DNA of 64,000 nt from Narcine bancroftii (taxonomy: Eukaryota), in the NCBI RefSeq assembly GCF_036971445.1, contig NC_091473.1, forward strand, positions 205,094,377 through 205,158,376. Direction: 5' to 3'. The stretch's first letter is position 1. Each line of letters begins with the position of its first letter. The translations under genes were made by a program, and so were the position numbers. Below are positions 6,112 to 45,021 of this stretch, piece by piece. The notes beneath the pieces were generated by a model. The model worked only from the letters and a program-made list of their open reading frames with translations, was not told where the DNA came from and did no database searches.

Positions 6112-6224
6112 TTGGCCAAGGCCAACAACTCCCGCTCCTTCACCTCCTGCTTCAGCTCCGCCAGGTGGAATTTTGCTTCCTCCGACTCGGCGCAAAAGTC
6201 CGACCTCCACTGGTCCGGAATCGA
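6112..6224 (-). CDS. TEP1: TEP1-like exon (...SIPDQWRSDFCAESEEAKFHLAELKQEVKERELLALAK)
   Basis: Acceptor ...ctgttgggacag|ATCGATTCC and donor GCCAA|gtaagac on the minus strand. Peptide matches the remembered human TEP1 segment [28 protein letters not shown]. Confidence 0.7.
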
Positions 6225-6289
6225 TCTGTCCCAACAGGTGGCAAGGAAAAATGGCCTCAGCAATTCTTTGTGCAGGACTATGATTCAAG

Positions 6290-6790
6290 AAGCAATTCCT
6301 GTTCCCATATCTACTCCTAATGGATCACCACTCCTTCCCATCCACTCCCACTCTCCACATTCCCAACGGCCCCTACCTCTTCCCATTCACTCCCACTGTC
6401 CACATTCCCAATGATCCCCACCCCTTCCCATTCACTCCCAGTGTCCACATTCCCAATGGATTCTCACCTCTTCCCATTCACTCCCACTGTCGACATTCCC
6501 AATGATCCCCACCCATTCCCATTCACTCCCACTGTCCACATTCCAATGGGTCCATCCCCTTCACTCCCTCTGTCCACATTCTCAATGGCCCCCCACCTCT
6601 TCCCATTCACTCCCAGTCCATATTCCCAATGGATTCTCATCTCTTCCCATTTACTCCTACTGTCAACATTCCCAATGATCCCCACCCCTCCCTATTCACT
6701 CCCACTGTCCACATTCCCAATGATCCCCACCCCTTCCCATTCACTCTCACTGTCCACATTCTCAATGGCCCCAGAGATACCCATCACTGG
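6290..6790. repeat. Satellite family S1, ~57-60-bp unit (cttcccattcactcccactgtccacattcccaatgatccccacccc), ~8 copies
   Basis: Direct tandem periodicity. The same unit recurs at 32790-33460. Confidence 0.85.
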
Positions 6791-6807
6791 GCTGAGCTCT
6801 GTCCCAC

Positions 6808-6929
6808 CTCAGCACAGCTGGGTCCCTTGTGTAGACGAAGCAGGACTGCCTGGGGTTGTCCGCGTTCTGCCTCAGGAACTGTTTCAATTCCAACTCCGTG
6901 ACCGAGCGGCCCTTGGGGTAGTCCTTGAC
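6808..6929 (-). CDS. TEP1: TEP1-like exon (VKDYPKGRSVTELELKQFLRQNADNPRQSCFVYTRDPAVL)
   Basis: Acceptor ccctctag|GTCAAGGAC and donor CTGAG|gtgggac. Matches human [23 protein letters not shown]. Confidence 0.7.
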
Positions 6930-7129
6930 CTAGAGGGATGGGTGGGAAGAACAGAGAGACAGTGGGTGGCTCTTACCCCACCACTCTTAGGGATCTTGGA
7001 CCCCACCTCAGTGGGAGAAGGAAGCATAATCACTCCCCATCCCCATCTCAAACAGATTAGCCCCTTATTCTAAGACAGTGACATCACCCCTTAATCTAAG
7101 ACAGTGACATCCCCCCCTCCAGTCATAAT

Positions 7130-7830
7130 GATGCCCGACCATTCAGGAGCAAGAGAGAACATAGAACTGCAGAGTACAGGCTTACAACATTGTGCTGATG
7201 TTTATTAACGGTCTGTAAAAATCTCACTCTTCCCTCCCTCACACCCATAATCCACATGCCTGTTCATGAGTCTTCTGAATGCCCTTATTAGACCAGTCAC
7301 CACCATTACCACCCACCCCCCCCCCCCACCCCCGGCAATGCATTCCTGGCACCCACCACCCTCTGCATTAAAAAAGGACTTACCTCTTACGTATCCTCTA
7401 AACTTCCATTCCTCACCTTAAGCAGATGTCCTCTGATATTTGCTATTGTCAACCTAGGGAAAAAAGGTGCTGGATGCCCCACCTGATCTAAGTCCCTTGT
7501 AATCTTATACAACCCTAAGTTGCCTTTTATCCTTCATTGGTCCAAAAAGAAAAGTCCCATCTCCAGCAACATTACCTCACTTCCCCCCGACTCATGAGGG
7601 CCAACACACCACACGCCTTCTTCGCCACCCCATCAACTTTGAGAGATCTATGGACCTTGACCCAAAGATCTCACGCCTTCTTCGCCACCCCATCAACCTT
7701 GAGAGATCTATGGACCTTGACCCAAAGATCTCACGCCTTCTTCGCCACCCCATCAACCTTGAGAGATCTATGGACCATGACTCAAAGATCTTGTGGTTCC
7801 TCCACGCTGTTAAAATCCCACCATTAACCA
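7130..7830 (-). mobile_element. CR1/L2-like LINE fragment (RT C-terminal and 3' region) with an internal 60-bp triplication at 7590-7800
   Basis: Homologous to the CR1 copies at 40440-40930, 41200-41560 and 52000-52590. The 60-bp unit cacgccttcttcgccaccccatcaac[ct]ttgagagatctatggaccttgacccaaagatct occurs three times. Confidence 0.6.
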
Positions 7831-9100: not shown

Positions 9101-9221
9101 CCACTGGAAGTGTGGCAGATCCGGCAGCGAGTAGTCGACCGGGATGTGTCCGTAGCGTTCTCCCAGGAGAAGCAGGAAGAGTTGGCAGCGGGAGACCTCA
9201 GACAGGCAGAGCTCCAGCTGC
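9101..9221 (-). CDS. TEP1: TEP1-like exon ([40 protein letters not shown])
   Basis: Acceptor tactctgcag|GCAGCTGGAG and donor CAGTGG|gtgaggg. Matches human [40 protein letters not shown]. Confidence 0.75.
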
Positions 9222-9239
9222 CTGCAGAGTAGGGGTGGG

Positions 9240-9730
9240 GGGCAAAGAGAGAGAAAAAAATGTTAGCCCTGGTGGAAGTGAGAGGGAGGAAGGGAATGGG
9301 GAAAGGGGAGGGGAGAACAGGGAAAGAGAGGTGGGGAGGAGAGAAGGAGAGGGGGGAGAGTCAGGAAAGAATGAGGGGAGGGGAGAGGGATGAGAGGATG
9401 GGGAGGGGAAGGGGAGAGCAAAGACAGGATGAGGAGAAATGGAGACAGGGGGAGAGGGGGGAAGGAGGGGAGAGAGGAGAGCAAGGACAGAAAGAGGGGA
9501 AGGGGAGAATGAGGGGGAGAGGAAGGAGAGAGGGAAGATGAGCAATGACAGAATGAGGGAAAGGGGAGGAGAGGGGAGAAGGGGTGATGGGGAAAGGGAA
9601 AGGAGAATGAGGGAAAGGGGAAAGGGAGGGGGAGAAGAAAAGGAATGAGGAGAGGATGAGAGCGAGGACAATGAGTGGGAAGGGGAGAGCAAGGAGAGAA
9701 TGAGGGGAAGGGGAGAGGGAGGGGAATCAG
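9240..9730. repeat. Purine-rich (GGGAGA/GGGGAG-type) simple repeat on the plus strand
   Basis: Direct reading. Overlapping ORFs are low-complexity translations. Confidence 0.85.
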
Positions 9731-9949: not shown

Positions 9950-10126
9950 CTGTTCCCGCGGGACTCCTCCTCGGTGATGCCCCAGCGCAGGTCAATCTCG
10001 CGCAGGTGGATGGCGTGCCGAGCAGCCCGAGCCCGCAGCTCCGGGAAGACAGAGCCAACCAGCAGGTCCCGCTCACTCTGCATGTCCCGGAACGTGGACG
10101 AGACAAAGACCCGGACTGTCCACCAC
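9950..10126 (-). CDS. TEP1: TEP1-like exon ([59 protein letters not shown])
   Basis: Acceptor ctgccaacag|GTGGTGGAC and donor GGGAACAG|gtgggtgtc. Matches human [58 protein letters not shown]. Confidence 0.8.
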
Positions 10127-10199
10127 CTGTTGGCAGAGTGAGGGGCGGACAGTCAGGGACAAGGAGAGGATGGTCCGATGAGAGAGCGTGGGTCGGAGC

Positions 10200-10900: not shown

Positions 10901-11059
10901 GGGAGTACCTGAGCGTGGGGGAATGAATAATGTCGCCCAGGCCGGAGGCCTCTCTGTCCCCGGGAATATGGCTACCATCCTTGGGTTTGGGGAGGTGGAA
11001 GATGTCGTCCATCCTGTTCACGTGGTTGAGCAGACGGCTGGATCCACGCTCACACAGGA

Positions 11060-11930
11060 ACCTTCATGGAGCAGACACCAGCTCAGACAGGACCAACTCC
11101 CCTTCCGCATACCTCCTCCAGAGACACAGCATGAAGCTCCCTCCAGACCATCCCGAAACACTCATCAGGGAGACAGAGTGAAGCTCTCTCCGTACCTGCC
11201 TGTTACCCACTCCCAGGGACAGACACACAGTGTAGCACCCTCCACACCTGCCCCAGAGACACAGAGTGAAGCTCCCTCAGTACCTTTCTGTCACACATTC
11301 TTCAGGGGCAGATACAGAATGAAGCACCCATTGCAACATCCCATCACACACTCCCCCAGGGACATGGAATGAAGTTTCTTTTGCACCGTCCCATCACCAA
11401 CTCCCAGGGACAGTCAGAGTGAAGCTCCTTCCACACAGTCCCATCACACACTCCTAGGGACAGACACAGAGTGAAGCTCCTTCCACACCATCCTATCATA
11501 CACTCCCGGGGACAGACACAGAGTGAAGCTCCCTCTGCACTGTCCCATTAAACATTCCCGGGGACAGACTCAGTGTGAAGCTCCTTCCGCACCATCCCAT
11601 CACACACTCCTGGGGACAGACAGAGATTGAAGCTCATTCCACACCGTTCTATCACACATTCCCGGGGACAGACACAGTGTGAAGCTCCCTCCGCACTGTC
11701 TCGTCACACACTCCTGGGGACAGACACAGAGTGAAGCTCGTTCCACACACTTTCATCACACATTCCCGGAGACAGACTCAGTGTGAAGCTCCCTCCACAT
11801 CGTCCCATCACACACTCCAGGGGCCAGACACAGAGTGAAGCTCCTTCCACACCATCCGATCACACACTCCCGGGGACAGACAGAGAGTGAAGCTCCTTCC
11901 ACATCAAACATTCCTGGGGATGGTGTAATG
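11060..11930. repeat. Satellite family S2, ~59-bp unit (ccatcacacactcccggggacagacacagagtgaagctccttccacac), ~15 copies
   Basis: Direct tandem periodicity. The same satellite resumes at 15360-15660. Confidence 0.9.
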
Positions 11931-11974: not shown

Positions 11975-13945
11975 TATCTTCTTCTTTGGCTTGGCTTCGC
12001 GGACGAAGATTTATGGAGGGGTAATGTCCACGTCAGCTGCAGGCTCGTTTGTGGCTGACAAGTCCGATGCGGGACAGGCAGACACGGTTGCAGCGGTTGC
12101 AGGGGAAAATTGGTTGGTTGGGGTTGGGTGTTGGGTTTTTCCTCCTTTGTCTTTTGTCAGTGAGGTGGGCTCTGCGGTCTTCTTCAAAGGAGGTTGCTGC
12201 CCGCCGAACTGTGAGGCGCCAAGATGCACGGTTTGAGGCGATATCAGCCCACTGGCAGTGGTCAATGTGGCAGGCACCAAGAGATTTCTTTAGGCAGTCC
12301 TTGTACCTCTTCTTTGGTGCACCTCTGTCTCGGTGGCCAGTGGAGAGCTCGCCATATAACATGATCTTAGGAAGGCGATGGTCCTCCATTCTGGAGACGT
12401 GACCTACCCAGAGCAGTTGGATCTTCAGCAGCGTAGATTTGATGCTGTCAGCCTCTGCCATCTCGAGTACTTCGATGTTGGAGATGAAGTCGCTCCAATG
12501 AATGTTGAGGATGGAGCGGAGACGACGCTGGTGGAAGCGTTCTAGGAGCTGTAGGTGATGCCGGTAGAGGACCCATGATTCGGAGCCGAACAGGAGTGTG
12601 GGTATGACAACGGCTCTGTATACGCTAATCTTTGTGAGGTTTTTCAGTTGGTTGTTTTTCCAGACTCTTTTGTGTAGTCTTCCAAAGGCGCTATTTGCCT
12701 TGGTGAGTCTGTTGTCTATCTCGTTGTCGATCCTTGTATCCGATGAAATGGTGCAGCCGAGATAGGTAAACTGGTTGACCGTTTTGAGTTTTGTGTTCCC
12801 GATGGAGATGTGGGGGGGCTGGCTGATGGAGGACCTCAGTTTTCTTCAGGCTGACTTCCAGGCCAAACATTTTGGCAGTTTCCGCAAAACAGGACGTCAA
12901 GCGCTGAAGAGCTGGCTCTGAATGGGCAACTAAAGCGGCATCGTCTGCAAAGAGTAGTTCACGGACAAGTTGCTCTTGTGTCTTGGTGTGAGCTTGCAGG
13001 TGCCTCAGATTGAAGAGACTGCCATCCGTGCGGTACCGGATGTAAACTGCGTCTTCATTGTTGGTCTTTCATGGCTTGTTTCAGCATCAAGCTGAAGAAG
13101 ATTGAAAAGAGGGTTGGTGCGAGAACGCAGCCTTGCTTCACGCCATTGTTAATGGAGAAGGGTTCAGAGAACTCATTGCTGTATCTGACCCGATCTTGTT
13201 GGTTTTCGTGCAGTTGGATAACCATGTTGAGGAACTTTGGGGGGGCATACGAGGCACTCTAGTATTTGCCAAAGCCCTTTCCTGCTCACGGCGTCGAAGG
13301 CTTTGGTGAGGTCAACAAAGGTGATGTAGAGTCCTTTGTTTTGTTCTCTGCACTTTTCTTGGAGCTGTCTGAGGGCAAAGACCATGTCAGTATTTCCTCT
13401 GTTTGCGCGAAAGCCGCACTGTGATTCTGGGAGAACATTCTCGGCGAGACTAGGTATTATTCTATTTAGGAGAATCCTAGCGAAGATTTTGCCTGCAATG
13501 GAGAGCAGCGTGATATCCCCGTAGTTTGAGCAGTCTGATTTCTCGCCTTTGTTTTTGTACAGGGTGATGATGATGGCATCATGAAGGTCCTGAGGCAGCT
13601 TTCCTTGGTCCCAGCAGAGCTTGAAAAACTCATGCAGTTTGGTATGCAGAGTTTTGCCGCCAGGCTTCCAGACCTCTGGGGGGATTCCATCCATACCTGC
13701 TGCTTTGCCACTTTTCAGTTGTTCAGTTGCCTTATATGTCTCTTCCCGGGTGAGGACCTCATCCAGCTCTAGCCTTAGGGGCTGTTGAGGGAGCTGGAGC
13801 AGGGTGGATTCTTGGACTGAGCGGTTGGCACTGAAAAGAGATTGGAAGTGTTCTGACCATCGGTTGAGGATGTAGGAGGACTTTGCCGTCTGAGCTGCGC
13901 AGCGGGCTTTGGACTTGGGGTAGCCTCCAAGAACTCTACTGGTCC
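11975..13945 (-). mobile_element. LINE-A family insertion, direct (3') segment: RT domain and C-terminal CCHC-like region, with 3' end at ~11975
   Basis: Minus ORFs ...KSGKAAGMDGIPPEVWKPGGKTLHTKLHEFFKLCWDQGKLPQDLHDAIIITLYKNKGEKSDCSNYGDITLLSIAGKIFARILLNRI... (RT) and ...MEDHRLPKIMLYGELSTGHRDRGAPKKRYKDCLKKSL...CNRCNRVCLSRIGLVSHKRACS. The reverse complement of ~11975-12010 gives the family 3' terminus ...CGCGAAGCCAAGCCAAAGAAGAAGAT. Confidence 0.85.
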
Positions 13946-13974
13946 CAGAAAGAGGTTTAATGTTGGAAACTTGC

Positions 13975-14392
13975 AGTCAGACGAAGTGAGAGGAAACTTC
14001 CAGGCAAACCTCAAAGCAAAGCTCGAGGATGCAATCCGCCTCACGGACTCGTCCCCTGAAACCCTCTGGGATCAGCTGAAGACTGCCATACTGCAATCCA
14101 CTGAAGAGGTACTGGGCTTCTCCTCCAGGAAAAACAAGGACTGCTTCGATGAAAACAACCAGGAAATCCAGGAGCTGCTGGCAAAGAAGCGAGCTGCCCA
14201 CCAGGCTCACCTTGCAAAGCCGTCCTGGCCAGAGAAGAAACGAGCCTTCCGTCGCGCATGCAGCCATCTTCAGCGCAAACTCCGGGAGATCCAAAATGAG
14301 TGGTGGACTAGCCTCGCCAAACGAACCCAGCTCAGTGCGGACATTGGCGACTTCAGGGGTTTTTACGAGGCTCTAAAGGCTGTGTACGTCCC
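13975..14392 (+). mobile_element. LINE-A family insertion, inverted 5' segment (twin-priming product) encoding the region just upstream of the RT
   Basis: Plus ORF MQSDEVRGNFQANLKAKLEDAIRL...LAKPSWPEKKRAFRRACSHLQRKLREIQNEWWTSLAKRTQLSADIGDFRGFYEALKAVY. In the colinear copy at 34565-36730 this segment is immediately followed by ...GPSSPSPKPAAQLRRQ. Here that continuation lies on the opposite strand at ~13920. Confidence 0.8.
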
Positions 14393-15359
14393 CTCACCCG
14401 AAGTCCAACGTTACAAATATACACACTTTAAAACCGATCTTATTTGAAATACTTAAGAATTCATATTCAGTGAACTTTACAGAAACTATGGAGAATACTA
14501 TACACATTCCACAAGGAGGTGTTAATTGAAATGACGTTATAAAATGAATAGGCTATTGTCTTGGACTGGAGACACTTTGGCTATTTGCAAGGTTCTACAA
14601 AGTGTTCACAGAAAGGTCCCTCCTGGGTTCTTGTTTACCTAAAACAACAGATGGGAGCAAAAGACTAACTTCTATTGTTTGCTGGAGAAGGTGGGGGTTT
14701 GGTGGCAAGTGAGAGAACGAAGGACATGTGGCTAGCAGTTTGATGAAGAGACTGAACAGTCACAGCTGAAGCAAGCAAGAAGCCTGTTGGAATTGAAACA
14801 GAAAGCTCCAGAGCAGCAGATGGCTGGAAGTACTATCTGTCTGATTCTCTTAGAATAAGTGGAACAGAAAGGAACTCTGTGATAGCCTGAAAGAAAAAGG
14901 TTATCATCTGGAGAACCCTGATGGGGAAAGTTTCATCAACAAGACATTGAGGTGACTAATGGTGGTACCTCAGTTGTGGAAATCCTGGAACAACAAATCT
15001 CTCTATGCAAATCTCCAAAGAACCTTCCTGAGCGGTAAACATTTATCTTTCGAGCACCAAAGCCTGGTCAACTTTATACATGTTAAATACTGTGCATGGT
15101 CTAAGAATTACCTGCAACCAGTGAACTTGGAAGAATGAGAAGTGAGATTGAACTATGAACCAAAGAACTTTTTGTAAATTTACACACACATCATACATGT
15201 GCACTGAGAATTAGAAGGGGTTAGTTAAGTTAATAGAGATAAGTAATGTTTGATTCTGTTTTCATGTTTAAAGATAATTAAAAACAACTTTTGTTTAAGT
15301 AACCATTTGTCGTGGTGAATATCTATTGCTGCTGGGTTTTGGGGTCCTTTGGGCTTGTA

Positions 15360-15660
15360 ACAATGGAGACAGAGTGAAGCTCCTTCCACACCGTCCCATC
15401 ACACATTCTTGGGGATGGACACAGAATGAAGCTGCTTCCACACTGTCCATTCACACACTTCCAGGGACAGACACACAGTGAAGTTCCCTCCGCTCTGTCC
15501 CCTCACACACTCCCGGGGACAGACACAGAGTGAAGCTCCTTCCATGCTGTCCCATCACACATTCCCGGTGACAGACATAGAGTGAAGCTCCCTCCGCACC
15601 CTGCCCTCACAAACTCTTGGGGACAGACACAGAGGTAAATTCTCTCCACACCATCCCTTT
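15360..15660. repeat. Satellite family S2 (~59-bp unit), continuation on the far side of the LINE-A insertion
   Basis: Same unit as 11060-11930. Confidence 0.85.
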
Positions 15661-16199
15661 ACACAGTTTCCCAGTTTTTCCTCTCACCTCAAGATCTGGT
15701 CACTGAATCCGTACAGAAAGATATCATTTTTGCAGTCGGTGAATGCTGATATAAGGCTGTGGGATCAGAGATTAATTTTACTGTGTGCTTGCAGGAGCAA
15801 AAAAAATTGCAATCGATAACATGTTGAGGACAGACTTGGTGTGGAGCCCCCTTGTACCCCGCTGAGCCTGTGTCCTGACTGAAGGTACTATGAACTGGTG
15901 TTCAATTTCACAGTTCCTAAACCGAGGTACTGGCTTTGCGAGGAGTTCTGCTGGCAAACCTGGGCATCGGACTGACGATCCAACACTGTGCACAGTGAGA
16001 GAGATTGGTTCATTATCTTACTGGTGAGGATTCTTCATTAGTGCGAAAACAGTAGGAAAGAAACTGTCCTCAAATCTGGTCGGGGCGTTATCTCACCCAT
16101 GTGAATCTGCTTCTTAATGAGAGTGGGGTAAAGAGAGTGTGGCTGTAATGGAACAGGTCACTGACTGCATCCCCAGCTCCCACATGTTGTTTCTCAGTT

Positions 16200-16470
16200 A
16201 CCCCTCTGCCCCAGCACCCCGTGTCACTGACTGTACCCCAACTGACAATCCCCCCCCACTCTCTCAGTGCCCCATCACTGACTGTACCCCCACTGACATT
16301 ACTCCCTCTCTCAGTGACCCCTCTCCTGCAGCCCTTCATGTCACTGACTGTAACCCTACTTTCATTACCCTCTCCCTCAGTGACCCCTCTCCCCCAGTGC
16401 CCCGTGTCACTGACATTACCCCAAATGCCCCAGTGACCCCCTCTCCCCCAGTGCCCCACATTTTGATTCA
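16200..16470. repeat. Tandem repeat, ~57-bp unit (cccctctcccccagtgccccgtgtcactgactgtaccccaactgacattaccc), ~4.5 copies
   Basis: Direct reading. The 265-aa ORF across it is a repeat translation. Confidence 0.8.
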
Positions 16471-17579
16471 CTATAACACCCCATCCCACAGTCTGACTGC
16501 ACCCCACCATGCACTGCTATTTAATACTGCACATCTCTGTACTGAAGGTTGTAACAGGGAACAGAGCTTTTCACTGTCTTCAAAGGCAAGAAACCAATTC
16601 AGTTCTGGACCTGGCTTGATCTCACAGCAGCAGTTTCTGGGAACCTGGGAGAGGTGGGGGGTGTGGGGAAGAGGGGGAACAGGGGACATTATCAGTCTGC
16701 ATTGGATGGAGAGAGGGGTCAGGAGGATTCTGTCAGATGTCTACCCTCTGGGGGGGGATGGATACAGCAAGGGAGGGTGTCTGTGGGAGGGTGGGACTCC
16801 GGCAGGGAGGGAAGGGGCCCTGAGAAAGGGAGGGATACACGGAGGAAGGGGTCCACAGCGAGGGCTGGAGGAGAGATCTACAGGGATGGAGAAAGGGATC
16901 GGTTATCCGGACGATTATCAAGTAGGTCGGACGTGAAACCACTCCGAACACTGGATAGTCCACGTGCTTGCTCCAGCAGGGTCACCTGACCAGGCAGGTC
17001 GAAAGTCATCTCCCCACGTCAATCAAGGTGAGCATGCCCACAAGCAAGGGCACAACTTACGACTGGCTCTCTTGCCTCATTCGGGAATACCTGAGCTGGA
17101 CTCTCCAGCCTGCTGCAGTATCAAGCCCATCATGTAGATCACCCACCTCTCTTTATCCCCAGGGACAGATCCAGGTTGAAAGGTGGAGGTGACACTGGAA
17201 AGCGTCAGTTCAGGGAAGGGGGGGGAGGGTCTATTGTGAATACCTAGAAAGGACTGTGGTGCCTTATACTTTGACCTCAGTGCAATTAGACACTGTAGTT
17301 AAGAGGGATATGGTGCCTGCTGGTTAGAGAAGAATGGCGATGACTGTTTTACCATGGGGAACTGCGATTTGCAGCGACCTGTGCCTTTAACCATGGGAAC
17401 TGCGAGTTATAACAGCTGTAGTGATGCTTGATTGTTTAGCTCTGTCCGCTACATACGAACTGTGTGAAAAATCCTTGTTTTGTGTGTGTGAGAGTCATCC
17501 CTGTTGCCACCTATTCACCCCATGTAAATAAAAATCCTTTTTTGTGGTTAAACTGTATTCAGTCTCATCAAATCTTGGA

Positions 17580-18115: not shown

Positions 18116-18237
18116 CTTGCCCTCTGAATGGAGAGATCAACCTGAAGGAAGAGCAGGTTATGGTTGACGTGGTAACGGTAGACTGGTATGATATCGCAGA
18201 TGGGAAACCCCGAGCCCAGAAGTAGCACCGTGTCAAT
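18116..18237 (-). CDS. TEP1: TEP1-like exon (IDTVLLLGSGFPICDIIPVYRYHVNHNLLFLQVDLSIQRA)
   Basis: Acceptor cattgcag|ATTGACACG and donor GGGCAAG|gtaggcc. Weaker match to human VDRVILLGQSMDDGMINVAKQLYWQRVNSKCLFVGILLRRVQ. Confidence 0.6.
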
Positions 18238-18399: not shown

Positions 18400-19000
18400 A
18401 ATATGGGATGTGAGCTGACCCATTCCCTTCTCCTTTCCCCACCCCCAACCCACTCCCTCATTCCACCCTGTCCATCCCACCCCGTCCCCACTCGCTTCGT
18501 CTCCACTCCCTTCTTCCCCACTCACCCTGTCCCCACTCCCTTCTTCCCCACTCACCCTGTCCCCACTCCCTTCTACACCCATCCCGTCCCCACTCCCTTC
18601 TCCCCCCCACCCCGCCCCCATGTCCTTCTCCTCCACTCACCCTGTCCCCACTTCCTTCTCCACCCACACTCCCTTCCCAATCCTGTCCCCACTCCCTTCT
18701 CCCCCACTCACCCCGTCCCTACTCCCACCCCATTCCCATTCCCTTCTCCACCCCCACCTCGTCCCCCCTCCCTTTCCCCCCCACAGCCTGTCCCCACTCC
18801 CTTCTCCACCCCCACCCCGTCCTCACTCCCTTCTCCCCTACTCACCCTGGCCCCACTCCCTTCTCTCGCCCCCACTCTGTCCCTACTCCCTTCTACCCCC
18901 ACCCCATCCCCACCCTCACCCCATCCCTTCTCCTCTCTTCCCTACCCCACCCCAACTCCCCCCACCCCACGGTCTCCCATTCCATTGGCAGCACAGGTCA
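18400..19000. repeat. C-rich minisatellite, ~32-bp unit (tccccactcccttcttccccactcaccctg)
   Basis: Direct reading. It lies between two TEP1 exons. Confidence 0.8.
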
Positions 19001-19005: not shown

Positions 19006-19089
19006 CTGCTCATGGTCCCGAATGCAGTCCAAGAAAAAGGAGGCAAATCCACTGATTTTATACGATTCATCCCCCACGGCTTCAAGGTT
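19006..19089 (-). CDS. TEP1: TEP1-like exon (NLEAVGDESYKISGFASFFLDCIRDHEQ)
   Basis: Acceptor ctaccag|AACCTTGAA and donor GAGCAG|gtgggtgacc. 84 nt, phase 0. Confidence 0.6.
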
Positions 19090-19453: not shown

Positions 19454-19606
19454 CTTGGCCTCTTGCAGGATCCTGTCCAGGCCAGTCAGGAGGGAACCGC
19501 GGGGGAGGTCCAATCCCCGGTAAGAGTGCTGGGAGCAGAGTACCAGGCGGGACGTCTCACTCAGCCGTGCAGTCATCAGCCCCAGGAGGGCGGCAACCTC
19601 CAGGAC
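19454..19606 (-). CDS. TEP1: TEP1-like exon (VLEVAALLGLMTARLSETSRLVLCSQHSYRGLDLPRGSLLTGLDRILQEAK)
   Basis: Acceptor cttggcag|GTCCTGGAG and donor GCCAAG|gtcagtggggg. 153 nt, phase 0. Confidence 0.6.
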
Positions 19607-21462: not shown

Positions 21463-21682
21463 CGTTGGTGCCCCAGCCTGGGGCACTGTATCAGGGCTCG
21501 GGGCCCCACGGGGGAGGAGATCTCGTGCTCCGAGGCAGGGTTGCTTCATCGAAGGTTCGACAGCACACAGGACGACGGTGCGCCCGGGGAGGGGTGGCAG
21601 GTTGTGTGTGGCCGAGATCTCAAGGGCCTTCTCCAGGGCTTGACTGTATTGGTCCAGCAGGTCCTGGTCATAGTGGACGTTC
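21463..21682 (-). CDS. TEP1: TEP1-like exon (NVHYDQDLLDQYSQALEKALEISATHNLPPLPGRTVVLCAVEPSMKQPCLGARDLLPRGAPSPDTVPQAGAPT)
   Basis: Acceptor aaccccag|GAACGTCCAC and donor CCAACG|gtgaggtgg. Matches human QWKYDGEMLNRYRQALETAVNLSVKHSLPLLPGRTVLVYLTD. It lies at the C-terminal end of the long low-complexity minus ORF 21355-22371. Confidence 0.7.
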
Positions 21683-21699
21683 CTGGGGTTGAGGGGAGA

Positions 21700-22300: not shown

Positions 22301-22779
22301 ATTGTACAAGATACAGACACATTGAGAATCTTACTGCCACCACAGGGATGAATGTGATGCACCAACAGCAATGGTACAACTACAGTGGAGAAAGGGAATG
22401 AGAAAGGGGGGGTTTCAAGAGAGGGCTACAAATGAGAAGGAATGATAAGGAGGAACGAGAGAAGACTCCATTCTGTTCCCCCATTGTTCTGTGAGACCCC
22501 AGCTGGTCCTGTGGGCTTCCTTCCACACTCTCTCCAGTACCTTCTCACCCAACCCCAATCTGGGATGCATTTGGTGACTCGAACTCTTTTCCCCTCCATC
22601 ACCAAACCCAGGCTGGGGGGGGGGGGTCGGGACATGGGGTGGCAACTTCTCCAAACACTGGCTAACCAGCCCGCACTTGTAGCCATGCATGTAGAAGCTG
22701 GTCACCAGATCACAGGGAGGGTGGGGTTGTGCCGAGATGGGGTGAGGGAGACTCTCCCGGGCCGGGGTAGTGGGGGGGG

Positions 22780-29807: not shown

Positions 29808-29898
29808 CCTTGTGCTCCAGTGCTTCCCGCAGCTTGGAGACCACACGGAGGGCCGTCAGGAATCGGAAAGGGAACTGGCGGCTGTGGACAATGCACCT
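29808..29898 (-). CDS. TEP1: TEP1-like exon (RCIVHSRQFPFRFLTALRVVSKLREALEHK)
   Basis: Acceptor cccccag|AGGTGCATT and donor CACAAGG|gtgagtt. Matches human SVIHSRQFPFRFLNAHDAIDALEAQLRNQ. Confidence 0.8.
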
Positions 29899-30726: not shown

Positions 30727-30836
30727 TTCGTCGGAGAATTGGGCGAGGAGCTTCCGGTGGTGGCGGGCGCTCAGCCCCCGACTGATCATGTTGCGCAGGT
30801 TGCGAAGGGCAGCCATGAAGGGCAGCTTCTGGTTAT
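30727..30836 (-). CDS. TEP1: TEP1-like exon (DNQKLPFMAALRNLRNMISRGLSARHHRKLLAQFSDE)
   Basis: Acceptor cctacag|ATAACCAG and donor GACGAA|gtaagt. Matches human ENGKLPFMAMLRNLCNLLRVGISSRHHELILQRLQHAK. Confidence 0.8.
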
Positions 30837-32023: not shown

Positions 32024-32181
32024 CCGATGAGCCGTTCCCAGCAACGGGCGCTGTTCCCATGAAGGCAAAGTTCCCTCTCCCAGGTGTCCGGCACTGGAAG
32101 CTTCATTCTGGTCCCTGCTCTTTGTGAGTCCCAGGGCCCTGGCAACCGGGCTTTGGCAAAGGACTGCAGGTCACAGGGGTA
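32024..32181 (-). CDS. TEP1: TEP1-like exon (YPCDLQSFAKARLPGPWDSQRAGTRMKLPVPDTWERELCLHGNSARCWERLIG)
   Basis: Acceptor ccccaacag|GTACCCCTG and donor CTCATCG|gtgaggctc. Matches human YPSNLQLFSRSRLPGPWDSSRAGKRMKLSRPETWERELSLRGNKASVWEELIE. Confidence 0.8.
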
Positions 32182-32789
32182 CCTGTTGGGGTGGGGAGGG
32201 GGAAGGGAGGGGTGGGAGAGGAGAAGGTGGTGAAAGAGGGGGAAAAGAGAGGGGGAATGGGGAAGAGGGGGGGTGAAGAGAGGGAGAAGACAGGCAAGTG
32301 AGAGGAGAGGAGGGAGGGGGTGAGGGGGAAGGGAGGCAGGGAGATATTTGGGGAGATAGCAGGGAGGGCAGTGATGGAGAAGAAAGTGGAAGAAGAGGGG
32401 GAGAAGAGAGGGAGGAGGGGGAAGGGCATGTGGTTTCAGTGGGCAACAGGCAAGGTGGGTCAGGGACAGTGGGGGAGAGAGAGTGCGGGGAGGAGGGGGT
32501 GAGGGAGGAAAAAGTGAATGAGGGGAAGAGGGAACAGAAGGGAGGAGATGGCGATGAAGATGGAGAGAGAGGAAAAAAAGAGAGTGAATTGACAGCCTCA
32601 GGCAGACGGAAGTGCCCCCAGACACCTTTGACCCACTCTCACCTTCGACCCAGCAGGCACATGATGTGATTGGCTGGTTCCCTTAGGTGCAGCCACTGGA
32701 CCAGCTTCTTCAGAGTGAAGGGGTCTGCTGGCTTCATCTTTTCTCCCCTATCCGGGTTCAATCTACCCCCCTGCAAGCAAAGGAACACC

Positions 32790-33460
32790 AGGATCACTCA
32801 CCCAGTCAAGAGGTGCGCCTTCCCATTTACCCCAACTATCCACATTTCCAATGGACCCCAACCCTTCCCATTCATTCCACTGTCCACATTCCCAATGCAT
32901 CCCCAGCCCTTCCCATTCACTCCCACTGTCCACATTATCAATGGATCCCCAGTCCCCCACTATCCACATTCCCAATGATCCCCACCCCTTTCCCACTGTC
33001 CACATTCCCAATGGATCCCCCACCCCTTCCCATTCACTCCCACTGTCCACATTCTAAATGGATCCCACCCCTTCCCATTCACTCCCATTGTCGACATTCC
33101 CAATGATCCCCACCTCTACCTATTTAGTCCTACTGTCCACATTCCAAATGGATCCCCACCACTCCCACTGCCCACATTCCCAATGGATTACCACCCCTTC
33201 CCATTCACTCTCATTGTCCACATTCCAAATGGATCCCACCCCTTCCCATTCACTCCCACTGCCCATATTCCCAATGGTCCCCACCCCTTCCCATTCACTC
33301 CCACTGTCCATATTCCCAATGGTCCCCACCCCTTCCCATTCTCTCCCACTGTCCACATTCCCAATGGATCCCACCCCTTTCCATTCACTTCCACTGTCCA
33401 CATTCCCAATGGTCCCCACCCCTTCCCATTCTCTCCCACTGTCCACATTCCCGATGGCTA
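32790..33460. repeat. Satellite family S1 (~57-60-bp unit), second array, ~11 copies
   Basis: Same unit as 6290-6790 (ttcccattcactcccactgtccacattcccaatggatccccacccc). Confidence 0.85.
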
Positions 33461-34565: not shown

Positions 34566-36730
34566 AGGTGTTCTACGCAAAGCCGTCCTGGCCAGAGAAG
34601 AAATGAGCCTTCCGTCGCGCATGCAGCCATCTTCAGCGCAAACTCCGGGAGATCCAAAATGAGTGGTTGACTAGCCTCGCCAAACGAACCCAGCTCAGCG
34701 CGGACATTGGCGACTTCAGGGGTTTTTACGAGGCTCTAAAGGCTGTGTACGGCCCTTCATCCCCAAGTCCAAAGCCCGCTGCGCAGCTCAGACGGCAAAA
34801 TCCTCCTCAGTGACAAGATCTCCATCCTCAACCGATGGTCAGAACACTTCCAATCTCTTTTCAGTGCCAACCGCTCAGTCCAAGAATCCACCCTGCTCCA
34901 GCTCCCTCAACTGCCCTTAAGGCTAGAGTTGGATGAGGTCCTCACCCGGGAAGAGACATATAAGGCAATTGAACAACTGAAAAGTGGCAAAGCAGCAGGT
35001 ATGGATGGAATCCCCCCAGAGGTCTGGAAGCCTGGCGGCAAAACTCTGCATGCCGAACTGCAAGCTCTGCTGGGACCAAGGAAAGCTGCCTCAGGACCTT
35101 CGTGATGCCATCATCATCACCCTGTACAAAAACAAAGGCGAGAAATCAGACTGCTCCAACTACAGGGGAATCACGATGCTCTTTATTGCAGGCAAAATCT
35201 TCGCTAGGATTCTCCTAAATAGAATAATACCTAGAGTCGCCGAAAATGTTCTCCCAGAATCACAGTGCGGCTTTCGCGCAAACAGAGGAACTACTGACAT
35301 GATCTTTGCCCTCAGACAGCTCCAAGAAAAGTGCAGAGAATAAAACAAAGGACTCTACATCACCTTTGTTGACCTCACCAAAGCCTTCAACACCGTGAGC
35401 AGGAAAGGGCTTTGGCAAATACTAGAGCACCTCGGATGCCCCCCCAAAGTTCCTCAACATGGTTATCCAACTGCACGAAAACCAACAAGATCGGGTCAGA
35501 TACAGCAATGAGTTCTCTGAACCCTTCTCCATTAACAATGGCATGAAGCAAGGCTGCGTTCTCGCACCAACCCTCTTTTCAATCTTCGTCAGCATGATGC
35601 TGAAACAAGCCATGAAAGACCTCAACAATGAAGATGCAGTTTACATCCGGTACCGCACGGATGGCAGTCTCTTCAATCTGAGGCACCTGCAAGCTCACAC
35701 CAAGACACAAGAGCAACTTGTCCGTGAACTACTCTTTGCAGACAATGCCGCTTTAGTTGCCCATTCAGAGCCAGCTCTTCAGCGCTTGACGTCCTGTTTT
35801 GCGGAAACTGCCAAGATGTTTGGCCTGGAAGTCAGCCTGAAGAAAACTGAGGTCCTCCATCAGCCAGCTCCCCACCATGACTACCAGCCCCCCCACATCT
35901 CCATCGGGAACACAAAACTCAAAACGGTAAAACAGTTTACCTATCTCGGCTGCACCATTTCATCGGATACAAGGATCGACAACGAGATAGACAACAGACT
36001 CACCAAGGCAAATAGCGCTTTTGGAAGACTACACAAAAGAGTCTGGGAAAACAACCAACTGAAAAACCTTACAAAGATTAGCGTATACAGAGCCGTTGTC
36101 ATACCCACACTCCTGTTCGGCTCCGAATCATGGGTCCTCTACCGGCATCACCTACGGCTCCTAGAACGCTTCCACCAGCGTTGTCTCCGCTCCATCCTCA
36201 ACATTGATTGGAGCGACTTCATCTCCAACATCGAAGTACTCGAGATGGCAGAGGCTGACAGCATCAAATCCACGCTGCTGAAGATCCAACTGCTCCGGGT
36301 AGGTCACGTCTCCAGAATGGAGGACCATCGCCTTCCTAAGATCATGTTATATGGCGAGCTCTCCACTGGCCACCGAGACAGAGGTGCACCAAAGAAGAGG
36401 TACAAGGACTGCCTAAAGAAATCTCTTGGTGCCTGCCACATTGACCACTGCCAGTGGGCTGATATCGCCTCAAACCGTGCATCTTGGCGCCTCACAGTTC
36501 GGCGGGCAGCCTTTGAAGAAGACCGCAGAGCCCATCTCACTGATAAAGGACAAAGGAGGAAAAACCCAACACCCAACCCCAACCAACCAATTTTCCCTTG
36601 CAACCGCTGCAACCGTGTCTGCCTTTCCCGCATCGGACTTGTCAGCCACAAACGAGCCTGCAGCTCACGTAGTCATTACCCCTCCATAAATCTTCTTCCG
36701 CGAAGCCTAGCCAAAGAAGAAGACAGGCAC
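34565..36730 (+). mobile_element. LINE-A family copy, 5'-truncated, colinear, ~2.2 kb
   Basis: ...AKPSWPEKK.AFRRACSHLQRKLREIQNEW...KAVYGPSSPSPKPAAQLRRQ...RT...CCHC region. 3' end ...CCATAAATCTTCTTCCGCGAAGCCTAGCCAAAGAAGAAGAC. Confidence 0.85.
35459..36660 (+). CDS. LINE-A reverse transcriptase plus C-terminal Cys/His motif (445-aa ORF; probably decayed at its N-terminus)
   Basis: ...LLFADNAALVAHSE... (F/YxDD box), ...HVSRMEDHRLPKIMLYGELSTGHRDRGAPKKRYKDCLKK..., CNRCNRVCLSRIGLVSHKRAC. Confidence 0.8.
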
Positions 36731-37037: not shown

Positions 37038-37187
37038 CGAGCTCCGTCTCTTTTGGGCTTTGCAGCGCTGTCTCCTGGAGTTGTACTTGGCCAGCTGATA
37101 CTCGTCGAAGGTGCGGAAAGAGTCAGTCAGGCCCTGCCGCAGGCAGGAGGGGAAGGGACCGAAGGTCTTAGGGGAGTTCGCCAGGCT
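37038..37187 (-). CDS. TEP1: TEP1-like exon (SLANSPKTFGPFPSCLRQGLTDSFRTFDEYQLAKYNSRRQRCKAQKRRSS)
   Basis: Acceptor cccctggcag|AGCCTGGCG and donor GAGCTCG|gtgagtagg. Matches human SLAEGDKNKLVPLPACLRTAMTDKFAQFDEYQLAKYNPRKHRAK. Confidence 0.85.
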
Positions 37188-37900
37188 CTGCCAGGGGAGA
37201 AGAGCAGATGAGGATGGTCCAGTGGGACACAGGCACACACAGAGTGACCACGTTCACTTCGGGTGGTGATGGGATTGGCAGAATAAGGGCAAGAGCACCA
37301 CGGGGAGGGGAGTCATGGGGCGGGGGAAGACAGGGGAGGGGAGGATGGGGAAAGAGGGGGAGGGGGGAGGGGGAGAGAGGGGGGGGAGGGGGAGGGGGAG
37401 GAAAGGGAGGGGAAAAGAAGGGGAGGGGAAAAGAAGGGAAGAAGGGGAGAGAGGGGAGGGGCAGAGTTGGGGAGCAGGCCCAGTCCTGCTCCTACATCTT
37501 CACGCTCAGTATCAAGCCTTCCCCTCTTCTTTGGGCCCAGCCCCATCATGTCCCCTTGACCTCAGGCCAGTTCCCGTCCTGCCCACTCAGGCCAAGCATC
37601 CATTTCATTTCCCCATCCCGTCATCTTGGACCCAGCCCCAATCTGCACCCCCCCCCTTGGGCCCACCCCAACCTGTGCCACCCAGCCCCTGGCCCCACCT
37701 ACCTTACCCTCGGACCCAGGCCCCATCCCACTTCTCAGGTCCTGGTCCTGTTCTGCACCCTTTAAGCCCAGCCTGTCTGCGTGGCCCCCCACCCCTTCCC
37801 CGTCAGATCCAGTCCTTATTCCTGCCCCCTTAACCATTGGCCCCCACCCCCTCCTTGGTCTCAGACCCAACAGCCATCCCACCTCCTCACCCTTGGCCTG
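37160..37900. repeat. Segmental tandem duplication, copy 1 (~750 bp, includes a purine-rich GGGGAG tract)
   Basis: Aligns to 38860-39620 at high identity (e.g. gggagcaggcccagtcct[ga]t[ct]cctacatcttc[ag]cgctcagtatc...). Confidence 0.8.
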
Positions 37901-38099
37901 AGCTGGCCCCTCTCCCAGTCCCTATCCCACCCTCTCACCCTGGGGACAAGCCCCTGTCCCGTCCCCCCTTGGTCTCAGTCCCTATCCCACCCCCTTACCT
38001 TGGGTCTAGCCCCTGGCCTCTCTCCCCTCCCCCCCGCTGGGTCTCAGACCCAGCCACAATCCCGCCCACAGAACACCCACCCTGCCCCCTCGGGCCTAC

Positions 38100-38261
38100 C
38101 TGGAAGAGCCTGGGCACTTGGAGCCAGTCAGAGGGCAGGCGCACGGCCCGAGCGAAGTATCGGCGCAGGTGGGGCCTCACGGAGGGGAGCAGGGCGCCCA
38201 CCGCTAACAGAAAGTTGGCCACGGACCGAATGTTCAGCTCGTGCCTGGCATACAGAGCGAC
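38100..38261 (-). CDS. TEP1: TEP1-like exon, TROVE domain (VALYARHELNIRSVANFLLAVGALLPSVRPHLRRYFARAVRLPSDWLQVPRLFQ)
   Basis: Acceptor cctcacag|GTCGCTCTG and donor CTCTTCCAG|gtaggcc. Matches human ASLYARQQLNVRNVANNILAIAAFLPACRPHLRRYFCAIVQLPSDWIQVAELYQ. Confidence 0.85.
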
Positions 38262-38859: not shown

Positions 38860-39620
38860 ACTTCCATGCACTGGTTAGGGGAGTTCACCAGGCTCTGCCA
38901 GGGGAGGAGCAGATGAGGATGGTCCAGTGGGACACAGGCACACACAGAGTGACCATGTTCACTTCGGGTGGTGATGGGATTGGCAGGGGTGGGGCAGAAT
39001 AAGGGTAAGAGCACCATGGGGAGGGGAGTCATGGGGTGGGGGAAGCAGGGGAGGGGGAGAGAGGGGGAGGGGGAGAGAGCGGGGAAGGAAGGGGAGGGGA
39101 AAAGAAGGGAAGAAGAGAGGGGAGGGAAAAGGGGAGAGAGGGGAGGGGCAGTGTTGGGGAGCAGGCCCAGTCCTATTCCTACATCTTCGCGCTCAGTATC
39201 TAGTCTTCTCCTCTTCTTTGGGCCCAGCCCGTCATCCCCCCTCAACCTCAGGCCAGTTCCCGTCCTGCCCGCTCAGGCCCAGCATCCATTTCATTTCCCC
39301 ATCCCGTCATCTTGGACCCAGCCCCAATCTGGACACCCCCCCCCTTGGGCCCACCCCAACCTGTGCCACCCAGCCCCTGGCCCCACCTACCTTACCCTCG
39401 GACCCAGGCCCCATCCCACTTCTCAGGTCCTGGTCCTGTTCTGCACCCTTTAAGCCCAGCCCGTCTGCATGCCCCCCCACCCCCTCCCCGTCTCAGATCC
39501 AGTCCTTATTCCTGCCCTCTTAACCTTTGGCCCCCACCCCCTCCTTGGTCTCAGACCCAGCAGCCATCCCGCCTCCTCACCCTTGGCCTGAGCTGGCCCC
39601 TGTCCCAGTCCCTATCCCAA
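38860..39620. repeat. Segmental tandem duplication, copy 2
   Basis: See 37160-37900. Confidence 0.8.
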
Positions 39621-39639
39621 CCCCTCACCCTTGATACAT

Positions 39640-41714: not shown

Positions 41715-41849
41715 CTTTAAGAGGAACTCAGGATCATCCTCCGCCACCTCTCGGCACAGGTTCAGCAGCAGCTGGCGGGTCGGGTCACTGGGGTTGGTGA
41801 AATTAGGACCCTGCAGCAAAGAGGAACAGACAGCTTCGAGCAGGGACTC
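41715..41849 (-). CDS. TEP1: TEP1-like exon (ESLLEAVCSSLLQGPNFTNPSDPTRQLLLNLCREVAEDDPEFLLK)
   Basis: Acceptor ccccttccag|GAGTCCCTG and donor TTAAAG|gtgtgag. Matches human MALLSLLCSTLVSEVNMNNTSDPTLAAIFEICRELALLEPEFILK. Confidence 0.85.
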
Positions 41850-42589
41850 CTGGAAGGGGTGGGGAGAGAGAAAATTGGGGTTAAAAGGATAGCGTCGCCG
41901 TACCCAGCAGCAGACACCCGTGGATGCTGTGGTCCAGTGTCGAGAAACCCCTGCCCCACTTCTCACCTCTGCAACCCTCATCATTGAGGGAGGGAGGTGG
42001 GAAGTTGGCATTTCGGGTCGGGACCCTTCTTAAGAGCCCCAGGAGGAGCAGGGAGGGGTCCCGGATTGCAGACAGAAACTGTACCCCTCTGAGGGAGGGG
42101 GGATGGTCTGTGACATCCTGGAGGACCCTCCCCCACCAATCCCATGCTGGCCAAGCCAACCCCATTTGCCTGCATTCCGGCCCCTGGACCTCTCCTATCC
42201 ACGTACCCTCCAAAAGTTTAATTCCAGCCCCCACCCCTTCCTCCAGCAGCTTGTCCCATGCACCCACCATCTCTGTGTGAAGGTGATCCCCTCTCACCTT
42301 AATCCCATGTACTCTGGTTTCAGATTCCCCGAGTCTGGGGGAGGGGAGGGGGGGGAAACTGTGACTGCCCGCCTTATCCACGTCCTTCCTGATTTTAGAA
42401 ACCTCTCTCAGGTCTGCCTCAACCTTTGACACTCGAGGAAGAAATGCCACGAGAGTGCAGAAAAGAATGATTGATGGGCTGGGTAAGGGAAGGGGTTTGA
42501 ATTGAAATGTCAACTGTTCTGATCCCTCCCACAGATGCTGCTTGAACTGGTGAGTTCCACTGGCAGAGTGGTTCACTGGTGGTGGTGGT

Positions 42590-42850
42590 GGGTGGGTGGG
42601 GGGTGTGTGTGTGTGGATATACGAGTCTGTGAGTATGACAGTGTGTGTGAGTGCATGTTTGTGTGTGAGTGCGTGTGTGTGCACGCACCCGCGCATTTGT
42701 ATCTGTACATTTGGGACTTTGTCCATATACGAGTCGATACATGAGTCTGTGTGTGTGAGTGTGAACCTGTGTCTGTGAGAGGGTGTGTCTATGTGTGTCT
42801 TTGCACATGTGCGCGTGTGCGAGGGCACGTGTGCAAGTTTGTAAGTGTGC
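42590..42850. repeat. Imperfect (GT)n / GTGTGTG-rich microsatellite block
   Basis: Direct reading. Confidence 0.7.
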
Positions 42851-43138
42851 CTGCATGTTGGTGAAGTCTGCAACAGGTGGGTTTCCCCCACCCCCCAGGG
42901 TTTCTGGTTCCCAAGAATGCCCCAGAGACCCCATGCAGGTTGGGGAATGAAATTGCCCCACCCACCCTCTTCTCAGTGCAGTGTGGGATGGGGTAGAGAC
43001 AGAATGTGGGGAGGGGGCAGGGAAGAGTGGAATGAGTCAGCAAGAGCAACATGGGGGTTCAGAGGTCGACAAGCCTGCTGTTCGAGGCCTTCCACTGCAC
43101 GAGCCCTCCAATGCGTTCTGGGCCTGGGGAAGCCTCAC

Positions 43139-43294
43139 CTTCTTCTTTCGCAGGCAGGCAGCCTGGTCAGCGGAAGGCTCTGGAACGTCATGCAGCTCTG
43201 GAGGACCTGACTCTCCGGTAGCCTCTGCCAGGTCCTCATACTCTTGTGCAGACAGGTCGCAGATGGGCATGTGTGCATCCGGCTCAACGGGATC
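43139..43294 (-). CDS. TEP1: TEP1-like exon, acidic region (DPVEPDAHMPICDLSAQEYEDLAEATGESGPPELHDVPEPSADQAACLRKKK)
   Basis: Acceptor ttctacctgag|GATCCCGTT and donor AAGAAGAAG|gtgaggc. Resembles human EEEEVEDLAVKLTSGDSESHPEPTDHVLQEKK. Confidence 0.65.
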
Positions 43295-44691
43295 CTCAGG
43301 TAGAAGGGGAGAATGAGCATGTCCGCACATCAATCCTCAACAAGTCTACTCCTGCTGGGAGACATTCCCAAACTCTGCCCGCCTTCCAGCATGGAATTCA
43401 GTAACCCACTCCCAGCAGTGGCGGATTAACTCCTACCCAGACCCCAAGGCTGAGCTTCAGCAAGGCTCCCCCTGACCTTGCCCACCCCCCACCGTCACAC
43501 CCTTCATTGAATAAAGTGATGTTGTTACGTTAAAATATCGCTGTACTATGTGTAATGCACGACATGTATAACATCATAAAGTTATACAAATCAATTACAG
43601 CCCTTTCATTCATTTTCTTTACATTTGTACTTAAACAACCTCCGTGTTTTTTGGATTACAGAAATATCGATAACAGCACGTAAATCAGCAGATCTAATTC
43701 AATGTGACAGATGACTAAGTTTCTCATGGTTCCTTGTTGAGCACAAATAGGTTTTGATCCCTTTCAGTGTTGAAAATGAACACACACCTGAATAGTTAGT
43801 GATCGTTAAGGAAAGATCAATTCGAAACCAAATGTATGGATTTGGATACACCTCGTACAGTCGATCTCTTGCCAGAGATCGATACATCGTAGTGACCCAC
43901 AAGTATTTCCCACTGGTGGACTGAAACACTGAAGAAATTGTACAATGCCCCAACCCAGAACCCTCCCTCAGCCTACCGCACACCAGAGCTCCTGTCGCCC
44001 CGCCTCTGAACCCTCCCCTCAGCCTATCTTAACTGAGGGGCACAATTTGCGTCTAATGAATTCAGTTTTTAAATAAAACATTTTACTCACATCTCTCCAA
44101 TTTAATTTGAACATAAATAAAGTATCGTTTGCACCTGGGCTTCACGGCGATTCATGCATGCGCAGCGTGCAAACCCCAATCCACGCTGAAGGGCTGAACG
44201 TGCCCAATCAGCAGGGAGCTTATACCGTTAACACCCAATCGACTGGAGACACACAAGGAGACGGCAGATGTCTAAAGCCAAACACAATGCGCAAGAGGAA
44301 CTCAGCAGGAGAAAAAGAACAGTCGATGTTTCGAGCCGGGGCTCCAATCGATGACAAGTCCAAGAAAACCATTTGTCACCAATCAGTGATTGCTCGAACC
44401 CATTTGTTATCGGGCTCCCCTCCCTTCCAGGCCCCTAGCCTTGAGCCTACTCACCTAATGGTTAATCCGCCACTAACACCCATGAATGTTATTCTAAATA
44501 TAAACCCCCCCACCCCCGAACCCAGATAGACCCATCAGTAACCAATCCCTGGGTTACTGATATTGAATAAAAATCCCCAACTCCTCGAACCACTGGATTT
44601 GATCCCAGCTTTTAACCCACTCCCATGGATCTGTTGTTCTATACATTTGTCCCCAATACCTCACCCGACCCCCCCCCCCACCACCCATTAC

Positions 44692-45021
44692 CTGTCGCTG
44701 TGGGACATCCCAGTTTTCTGGGGGCCCCAGGTAGGGTCTGGGTTCCTCCGCTGCCACTGATCTTCGATCCGACTTGGCCCCCAGGGTCTGGAAGCTGGAG
44801 GGGCAGAGGGCGGAGGGCAGCTTTGGGGTGAGGGTGCGGCTGAAGCAGAGGGGAAGTGGGGTTAGGGAGCGGGAGAGGGTCTGGTGGATGCCGGTCCCCA
44901 GAAACCTGTTGCTCAGCAGGTGAGGGGCGGCGAGCTTGGGATGCCGGAGAGATAGGGTCCTGGAGAGCAGTCGGTTGTCCAGGTCGGGGAACCTGCAGAG
45001 AGGCCTCCTCTTGGTCTTCAT
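44692..45021 (-). CDS. TEP1: TEP1-like first coding exon (MKTKRRPLCRFPDLDNRLLSRTLSLRHPKL...PENWDVPQRQ, 110 codons)
   Basis: ATG at 45019-45021 (minus). Donor CGACAG|gtaatgggtgg. The FPDLDNRLLSRTL-type repeats resemble the human N-terminal HPDILSLENRCLATL repeats. The preceding cccacag|GGATG suggests an upstream non-coding exon. Confidence 0.55.

Follow-up and report, generated by a model that had tools for sequence, protein, structure and literature searches.

TEP1 (telomerase protein component 1, alias vault protein p240) is a minor protein of vault particles, and its N-terminal part in vertebrates carries a TROVE domain, a vWA-like domain and a DUF4062 domain in that order. The gene is already known, widely conserved and well described, and the copy reported here holds little new biology. 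The TROVE domain and the vWA-like domain together form an RNA-binding module that is also present in Ro60 (TROVE2) and bacterial Rsr; these proteins, however, have about 500-540 residues, lack DUF4062, NACHT and WD40 parts, and bind Y RNAs, not vault RNA. Here we analyse a 64,000-nucleotide stretch of the genome of the ray Narcine bancroftii, referred to below as the window (NCBI RefSeq assembly GCF_036971445.1, contig NC_091473.1, positions 205,094,377 to 205,158,376 of the forward strand). We conclude with high confidence that the minus strand of window positions 6112-45021 holds the 5' part of a cartilaginous fish TEP1 gene that is intact and rich in introns; this part comprises 20 coding exons and 978 codons.

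The function of TEP1 has been described in mammals, where the protein binds vault RNA and telomerase RNA, resides in the vault alongside PARP4 and hydrolyses NAD+; telomerase works without it, but the association of vault RNA with the vault requires it (bioRxiv 10.64898/2026.05.01.722283, 10.64898/2026.09.04.749371). The same reports identify DUF4062 as a TIR-like NADase domain, renamed NIR, and show that residues 895-1113 of human TEP1 hydrolyse NAD+ inside vault particles, with E1008 as the catalytic residue and R908, R954 and R976 lining the active site. The bacterial DUF4062/NIR NADase defence effectors Swarozyc, Avs2-NIR, Vulcan and Vesta belong to the same TIR-like NADase fold family and have a catalytic Glu, as does the ray domain described below. 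They are prokaryotic antiphage proteins without TROVE, whereas the ray domain lies within a split eukaryotic gene.

The locus was noticed in a reading of the letters without database searches (the sequence-only reading), which proposed a partial TEP1 ortholog made of 17 segments with repeat-filled introns. A six-frame search recovered all 19 peptide patterns quoted there on the minus strand and in the proposed 5'-to-3' order, from 41735 down to 6195, the extremes being DPEFLLK (41715-41735) and PDQWRSDF (6195-6218). The stop-free frames around these peptides consist of short conserved segments within long low-complexity sequence. A rough concatenation of the segments already scored 311.7 bits for TROVE and 63.3 bits for DUF4062 in Pfam, and a large protein database search with it retrieved 2051 relatives. 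The best named relatives among the matches listed are annotated 'telomerase protein component 1' and come from sharks, frogs, tuatara and teleosts. The best 120 TEP1/TROVE homologs of the 2051 were used as the reference set for tblastn on the window; the TEP1 references are fragments (the longest among the matches listed has 876 residues) and were tiled. The tblastn hits form 17 clusters on the minus strand, all within 6117-44976, and are colinear with each reference protein. Two other exon-like tblastn matches, one at 23432-23304 resembling exon 17 and one at 40417-40194 resembling exons 6/7, lack DNA-level similarity to the real exons and were discarded as chance.

Splice sites were then read cluster by cluster, and three additional exons came from further searches. 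The resulting model (Table 1) has 20 exons with 2936 nt, 978 codons and zero stops, and runs from the ATG at 45021 to an open phase-2 donor, CAA/GTAAGA, after 6112 (slashes mark exon borders). GT-AG borders flank each of the 19 internal introns, GTAAGA forms the terminal donor, and every exon ends in the phase in which the next one starts. This exon structure and its uninterrupted frame are directly demonstrated. The gene part spans 38.9 kb, with a coding share of 7.5%. The count of 17 segments given by the sequence-only reading equals that of the tblastn clusters, and falls three short of the final model. Its other statements held at this level of detail: AG acceptors and GT donors were found at every exon, and both ends were exact to the nucleotide, with the ATG at 45021-45019 and the last donor after 6112. 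The peptides that it quoted, its splice logic and its end coordinates were thus all validated.

Of the three added exons, exon 15 came from a sensitive regional tblastn, and exon 10 from a local profile HMM built on those parts of the homologs that are flanked by the motifs FPFRF and LPGRT. Exon 13 is the top-scoring AG...GT open segment in the gap from 19454 to 18237, and a multiple alignment places it in register with homologs, ...FFLDCIRDHEQ/IDTVLLL against ...LMDMLRDRLQIDNLIIL and similar sequences. Because exon 1 is preceded by an acceptor (CCCACAG/GG), a non-coding 5' exon probably lies upstream of it. Near the 5' end there is no clear CpG island that would point to a promoter, the observed/expected CpG ratio being 0.2-0.5 at 44.5-48 kb.

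The spliced product matches, in order, the Pfam families TROVE (PF05731, 385.9 bits, E = 4e-115, the profile being covered in two stretches), DUF5920 (vWA-like; PF19334, 61.6 bits, residues 605-778, directly after TROVE) and DUF4062 (PF13271, 58.6 bits, after the vWA-like domain). This domain order, which is that of TEP1, is a direct observation, and together with the annotation of the best named relatives it bears out the identity originally proposed. The best phmmer match in the PDB is 11gz_A, 'Telomerase protein component 1', the crystal structure of the human NADase domain, and its alignment to model residues 802-970 has only one gap, one residue long (E = 3.4e-61). Equivalent residues were taken from the ungapped part of this alignment. 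Human R908, R954, R976 and E1008 correspond to model R814, R860, R882 and E914, which fall in exons 17, 17/18, 18 and 19, respectively; the catalytic Glu and the three active-site Arg are thus all kept (4/4).

These results also decide between TEP1 and another TROVE-domain gene of the Ro60/TROVE2 type. The ray product does have the TROVE and vWA-like domains in common with Ro60, and two bacterial TROVE structures appear, weakly, among its PDB matches. However, the presence of DUF4062 behind the vWA-like domain and the match of this segment to human TEP1 (E = 3e-61) effectively exclude Ro60. In addition, all top named matches are TEP1, and the product already has 978 residues with an open donor at its end, while Ro60 consists of TROVE and vWA only in about 540 residues.

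The visible part of this TEP1 gene most likely codes for two functional units of a vault protein, a TROVE/vWA module for RNA binding and a catalytically active NADase domain. The protein would begin with a poorly conserved N-terminal region, followed by a TROVE and vWA-like (DUF5920) module whose mammalian counterpart binds vault RNA and telomerase RNA. RNA binding, NADase activity and vault residence of the ray protein would be expected from homology and the literature. A NACHT ATPase and WD40 repeats are predicted downstream, beyond the window start. No homolog segment that includes NACHT matches positions 1-6111, though one reference (P0015) covers NACHT and continues for 366 residues past the last aligned exon; neither a NACHT nor a WD40 exon is present in this interval. 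The lack of a NACHT match in this interval and the open phase-2 donor place the rest of the gene beyond the window start, in agreement with the description of the gene as partial. An Rfam scan of the whole window at gathering thresholds found no RNA gene, and hence nothing like a vault RNA or an RNase P RNA.

We next consider how the ray product compares with individual relatives. The closest overall are predicted TEP1 and TEP1-like proteins of other chondrichthyans (Mustelus, Heptranchias, Scyliorhinus, Cetorhinus, Pristiophorus, Hemiscyllium and Callorhinchus), and the alignments to them continue unbroken over many exon junctions; shark TEP1 is matched by blastp at E = 0, which, like the TROVE and PDB scores, lies well outside chance expectation. 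Single blastp matches cover model residues 57-658 for a Mustelus TEP1-like protein (617 columns, 15 gap positions), 687-977 for Cetorhinus (294 residues, 3 gap positions) and 165-941 for a catfish protein (825 residues). Identity per exon is highest to chondrichthyans (58-62%), and exons 1-2 are matched by chondrichthyans only among the matches listed. The similarity to human TEP1 extends to the domain order and the active-site residues; an estimate made by eye puts one TROVE exon at about 60% identity to the human one. The four 30-residue N-terminal TEP1_N repeats of mammals, in contrast, are undetectable in the ray model.

Several chondrichthyan entries are labelled 'telomerase protein component 1-like', and identity to any single chondrichthyan TEP1 fragment is only 49-66% (about 50-66% for the shark proteins), which might suggest a lineage-specific TEP1 paralog in place of a one-to-one ortholog of human TEP1. 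However, sharks of different orders are equally divergent from one another over the TEP1 region (54-74% identity), so that the ray is no closer to them than they are to each other. Because of this, the level of identity fits an elasmobranch (batoid) lineage absent from the hit list, and not a divergent paralog, as far as sequence comparison can tell. Each TEP1 reference, moreover, yields a single colinear exon set, with no second locus within the window, and T-cell receptor (TCR) alpha-like V segments lie nearby, which may loosely match the human arrangement discussed below. We therefore regard a paralog as very unlikely.

We also considered that the locus might be an unprocessed pseudogene, inactivated only recently, or a truncated duplicate of TEP1, which in this part still looks intact. 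The window shows no more than the 5' third of the gene, satellites and young LINEs crowd the introns, a duplication has copied the acceptor of exon 5, and exon 14 is shorter than in homologs. Against this, 2936 nt in 20 exons contain no stop or frameshift and the splice sites are all canonical. The catalytic and active-site residues are conserved, similarity ends sharply at exon borders, and identity to sharks is no lower than that between shark orders. A pseudogene or truncated duplicate is thus extremely unlikely.

The assignment to an intact TEP1 ortholog has to be weighed against several points. Exon 13 is placed by its splice score, its phase and a weak in-register alignment only, and exon 16 has the weakest acceptor. 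Exon 14 is some 12-14 residues shorter than in all aligned homologs (around model residues 694-700); the missing residues belong to a vWA-like domain loop flanked by LLLGSGF and PICDIIPVYRYHV, and the shortening could be a lineage-specific deletion or reflect a small missed micro-exon. The TEP1_N repeat (PF05386) was not found in the spliced model by Pfam at E <= 0.1. Among the matches listed, shark, frog and teleost TEP1 likewise lack it in their precomputed domains, and only one reference (P0093) has it; the repeat thus seems not to be family-defining outside mammals. Orthology, as opposed to paralogy, would follow from best-hit similarity, architecture and loose synteny, and several of the shark entries that enter this comparison are themselves named 'TEP1-like'. 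The model is derived from genomic sequence, and transcription and splicing at the modelled sites are expected from homology and the literature. Finally, the C-terminal two thirds of TEP1 lie outside the window, so that intactness refers to the 5' part alone.

Table 1. Exons of the TEP1 model and other features of the window (window coordinates; exon remarks give length and characteristic peptides)
Feature	Positions	Strand	Remarks
TEP1 exon 1	44692-45021	-	330 nt; start codon; matches shark N-termini only
TEP1 exon 2	43139-43294	-	156 nt; phase 0/0
TEP1 exon 3	41715-41849	-	135 nt; TROVE begins; ...DPEFLLK
TEP1 exon 4	38100-38261	-	162 nt; VALYARHELNIR...LPSDW
TEP1 exon 5	37038-37187	-	150 nt; FDEYQLAKYN
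TEP1 exon 6	32643-32770	-	128 nt; phase 2 at end
TEP1 exon 7	32025-32182	-	158 nt; RLPGPWDS...TWEREL
TEP1 exon 8	30727-30836	-	110 nt; KLPFMAALRNL
TEP1 exon 9	29808-29898	-	91 nt; HSRQFPFRFL
TEP1 exon 10	28540-28720	-	181 nt; not among tblastn clusters; phase 1 in / 2 out, fitting its neighbours
TEP1 exon 11	21463-21682	-	220 nt; TROVE ends; LPPLPGRTV
TEP1 exon 12	19454-19606	-	153 nt; DUF5920/vWA-like
TEP1 exon 13	19006-19089	-	84 nt; putative; phase 0/0
TEP1 exon 14	18116-18237	-	122 nt
TEP1 exon 15	15688-15756	-	69 nt; NDIFLYGFSDQILR; not among tblastn clusters
TEP1 exon 16	10909-11061	-	153 nt; ...CCATGAAG/G
TEP1 exon 17	9950-10126	-	177 nt; DUF4062/NIR NADase domain begins; R908 equivalent and most of the R954 codon
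TEP1 exon 18	9101-9221	-	121 nt; QLELCLSEV...LPDLPHFQW; R976 equivalent
TEP1 exon 19	6808-6929	-	122 nt; YPKGRSVTELEL; catalytic Glu equivalent to human E1008
TEP1 exon 20	6112-6225	-	114 nt; PDQWRSDF..ESEEA; ends in phase 2 at the open donor
45-bp satellite array	6315-6773		Intron 19; same family as the intron-5 array
45-bp satellite array	32818-33457		Intron 5
52-bp satellite array	11315-11903		Intron 15
52-bp satellite, second array	15369-15665		Intron 15
30-bp C-rich satellite	18485-18913		Intron 13
Duplication copy A	37168-37941		Intron 4, acceptor and first 20 nt of exon 5
Duplication copy B	38875-39631		Within intron 3; 89.5% identical to copy A over 789 bp
Young RTE-type LINE	34577-36723	+	Intron 5; 445-residue ORF with the C-terminal part of RVT_1
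RTE-type LINE, second copy	11977-13920	-	Intron 15; 94.8% identical to the intron-5 copy over 1981 bp
RTE-type LINE, further copy	4632-5074	+	
RTE-type LINE, further copy	52602-53155	-	
L1-like LINE remnant	1-1666	-	Intron 20; endonuclease in 1-549 (Exo_endo_phos, 41 bits)
CR1/L2-like RT remnant	53161-53589	-	Upstream flank; RVT_1, 73 bits; flanking frames 54107-54646 and 52049-52462
L1-like remnant	55876-56478	-	Upstream flank; positions are those of the endonuclease; ORF1-like frame at 57393-57833 by eye only
V segment Va	58581-58875	+	Frameshifting 1-bp indels, without nonamer; pseudogene
V segment Vb	~60059-60193	+	Second V type, ending AVYLCAVR / AVYI together with Vd
V segment Vc	62642-62930	+	V exon; hydrophobic leader, ~75-nt intron, V-set domain (57 bits), ends ...DSAVYLCAV
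V segment Vd	63850-64000	+	Second V type; cut by the window end

The introns are rich in repeats. At least four intronic satellite families had been predicted, and Tandem Repeats Finder and a repeat finder together gave families of 45, 52, 30, 60 and 101 bp and others; besides the arrays in Table 1, further arrays have periods of 60, 61-68, 66, 70 and 101 bp. The segmental duplication that had also been noted was recovered as copies A and B. At 38875-38894, copy B carries the acceptor of exon 5 together with the first 20 nt of that exon, and this copied site could act as a cryptic splice acceptor. The 300 nt preceding the acceptors of exons 5, 7, 9, 11 and 18 (5 of 20) are 81-91% pyrimidine on the coding strand, a content of at least 80% being reached in only 3.9% of the 300-nt windows within the TEP1 gene. 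Such tracts lie, for example, at 21683-22260 (about 575 nt, before exon 11), 32183-32410 and 9222-9520, and they give rise to long S/P/L-rich open frames running into the exons; they may be expanded CT-rich microsatellites or may play a part in splicing. Shortly upstream of the TEP1 start codon are a 37/38-bp satellite with about 20 copies (45611-46352) and a CT-rich array of 1.4 kb that repeats every 17 bp (47641-49061) and includes a perfect 18-bp repeat of 7.7 copies at 48923-49061. These two arrays account for the extreme GC and AT skew at 46-50 kb.

Four intronic LINE families had been proposed. This is confirmed in part: an RTE-like family was verified in three introns (5, 15 and 20) and an L1-like endonuclease in intron 20; two further remnants were found only in the upstream flank, and the remaining candidates had no Pfam match. 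The RTE-type copies are 92-98% identical and have a common 3' end, as 5'-truncated insertions would show. The copy in intron 15 is accompanied by a piece at 14214-14399 (+) in the opposite orientation, resembling a twin-priming-like 5' inversion. The best protein matches of this LINE (84-91%) are all from Narcine bancroftii, whose genome NCBI has already annotated, and point to an electric ray as the source; the next tier (about 60-72%) comes from shrimps, sea slugs, corals, lancelets and suboscine birds, a patchy host spread typical for horizontally transferred RTE elements. The L1-like remnant at the window start has an ORF1-like frame at 1064-1666, recognised by eye only. AT-rich blocks at 52049-57833 (-) and 1-2000 (33-35% GC versus 50-59% elsewhere) coincide with LINE remnants. 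No Pfam match was obtained for nine intronic ORF fragments that by eye resemble tails of CR1/L2- or Rex1-type LINEs, nor for the long ORFs at 2767-3531, 16139-16936, 22442-23212, 23695-24342 and 50836-51399, which look like low-information frames in repeats.

The only neighbours identified for TEP1 are immunoglobulin-superfamily V segments, clustered at 58378-64000 (+), 13-19 kb upstream, and transcribed away from TEP1 in a head-to-head arrangement. The cluster is a tandem duplication of about 4.06 kb, in which 58378-58893 corresponds to 62439-62956 (80% identity) and 59484-60178 to 63283-63996 (77%). The segment Vc looks complete, and is followed on its 3' side by CACGCTG, a 23-nt spacer and ACAAAAAAC, which form a recombination signal sequence of the 23-RSS type. 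Among natural proteins in the PDB, TCR alpha chains match Vc best (TRAV20 and others, E of about 3e-15); a large protein database search with Vc gave no match. In human, both TEP1 and TRA/TRD are located on 14q11.2. If the ray V segments belong to a true TRA/TRD locus, the human 14q11.2 linkage between TEP1 and TRA/TRD would be as old as jawed vertebrates. The conserved catalytic residues of the NADase domain, in turn, suggest that vault NAD+ hydrolysis may be ancestral to gnathostomes. Taken jointly, that TEP1 forms the V-side edge of the ray TRA/TRD locus, in a linkage inherited from the jawed-vertebrate ancestor, and that vault NAD+ hydrolysis is ancestral to gnathostomes is a tentative proposal, to which we give somewhat less than even credence.

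Altogether, the locus provides a clean exon map for a batoid TEP1 across its RNA-binding and NADase regions. The retention of the NADase residues in a cartilaginous fish lends support to the idea that this activity is old and central to the vault protein rather than peculiar to mammals.

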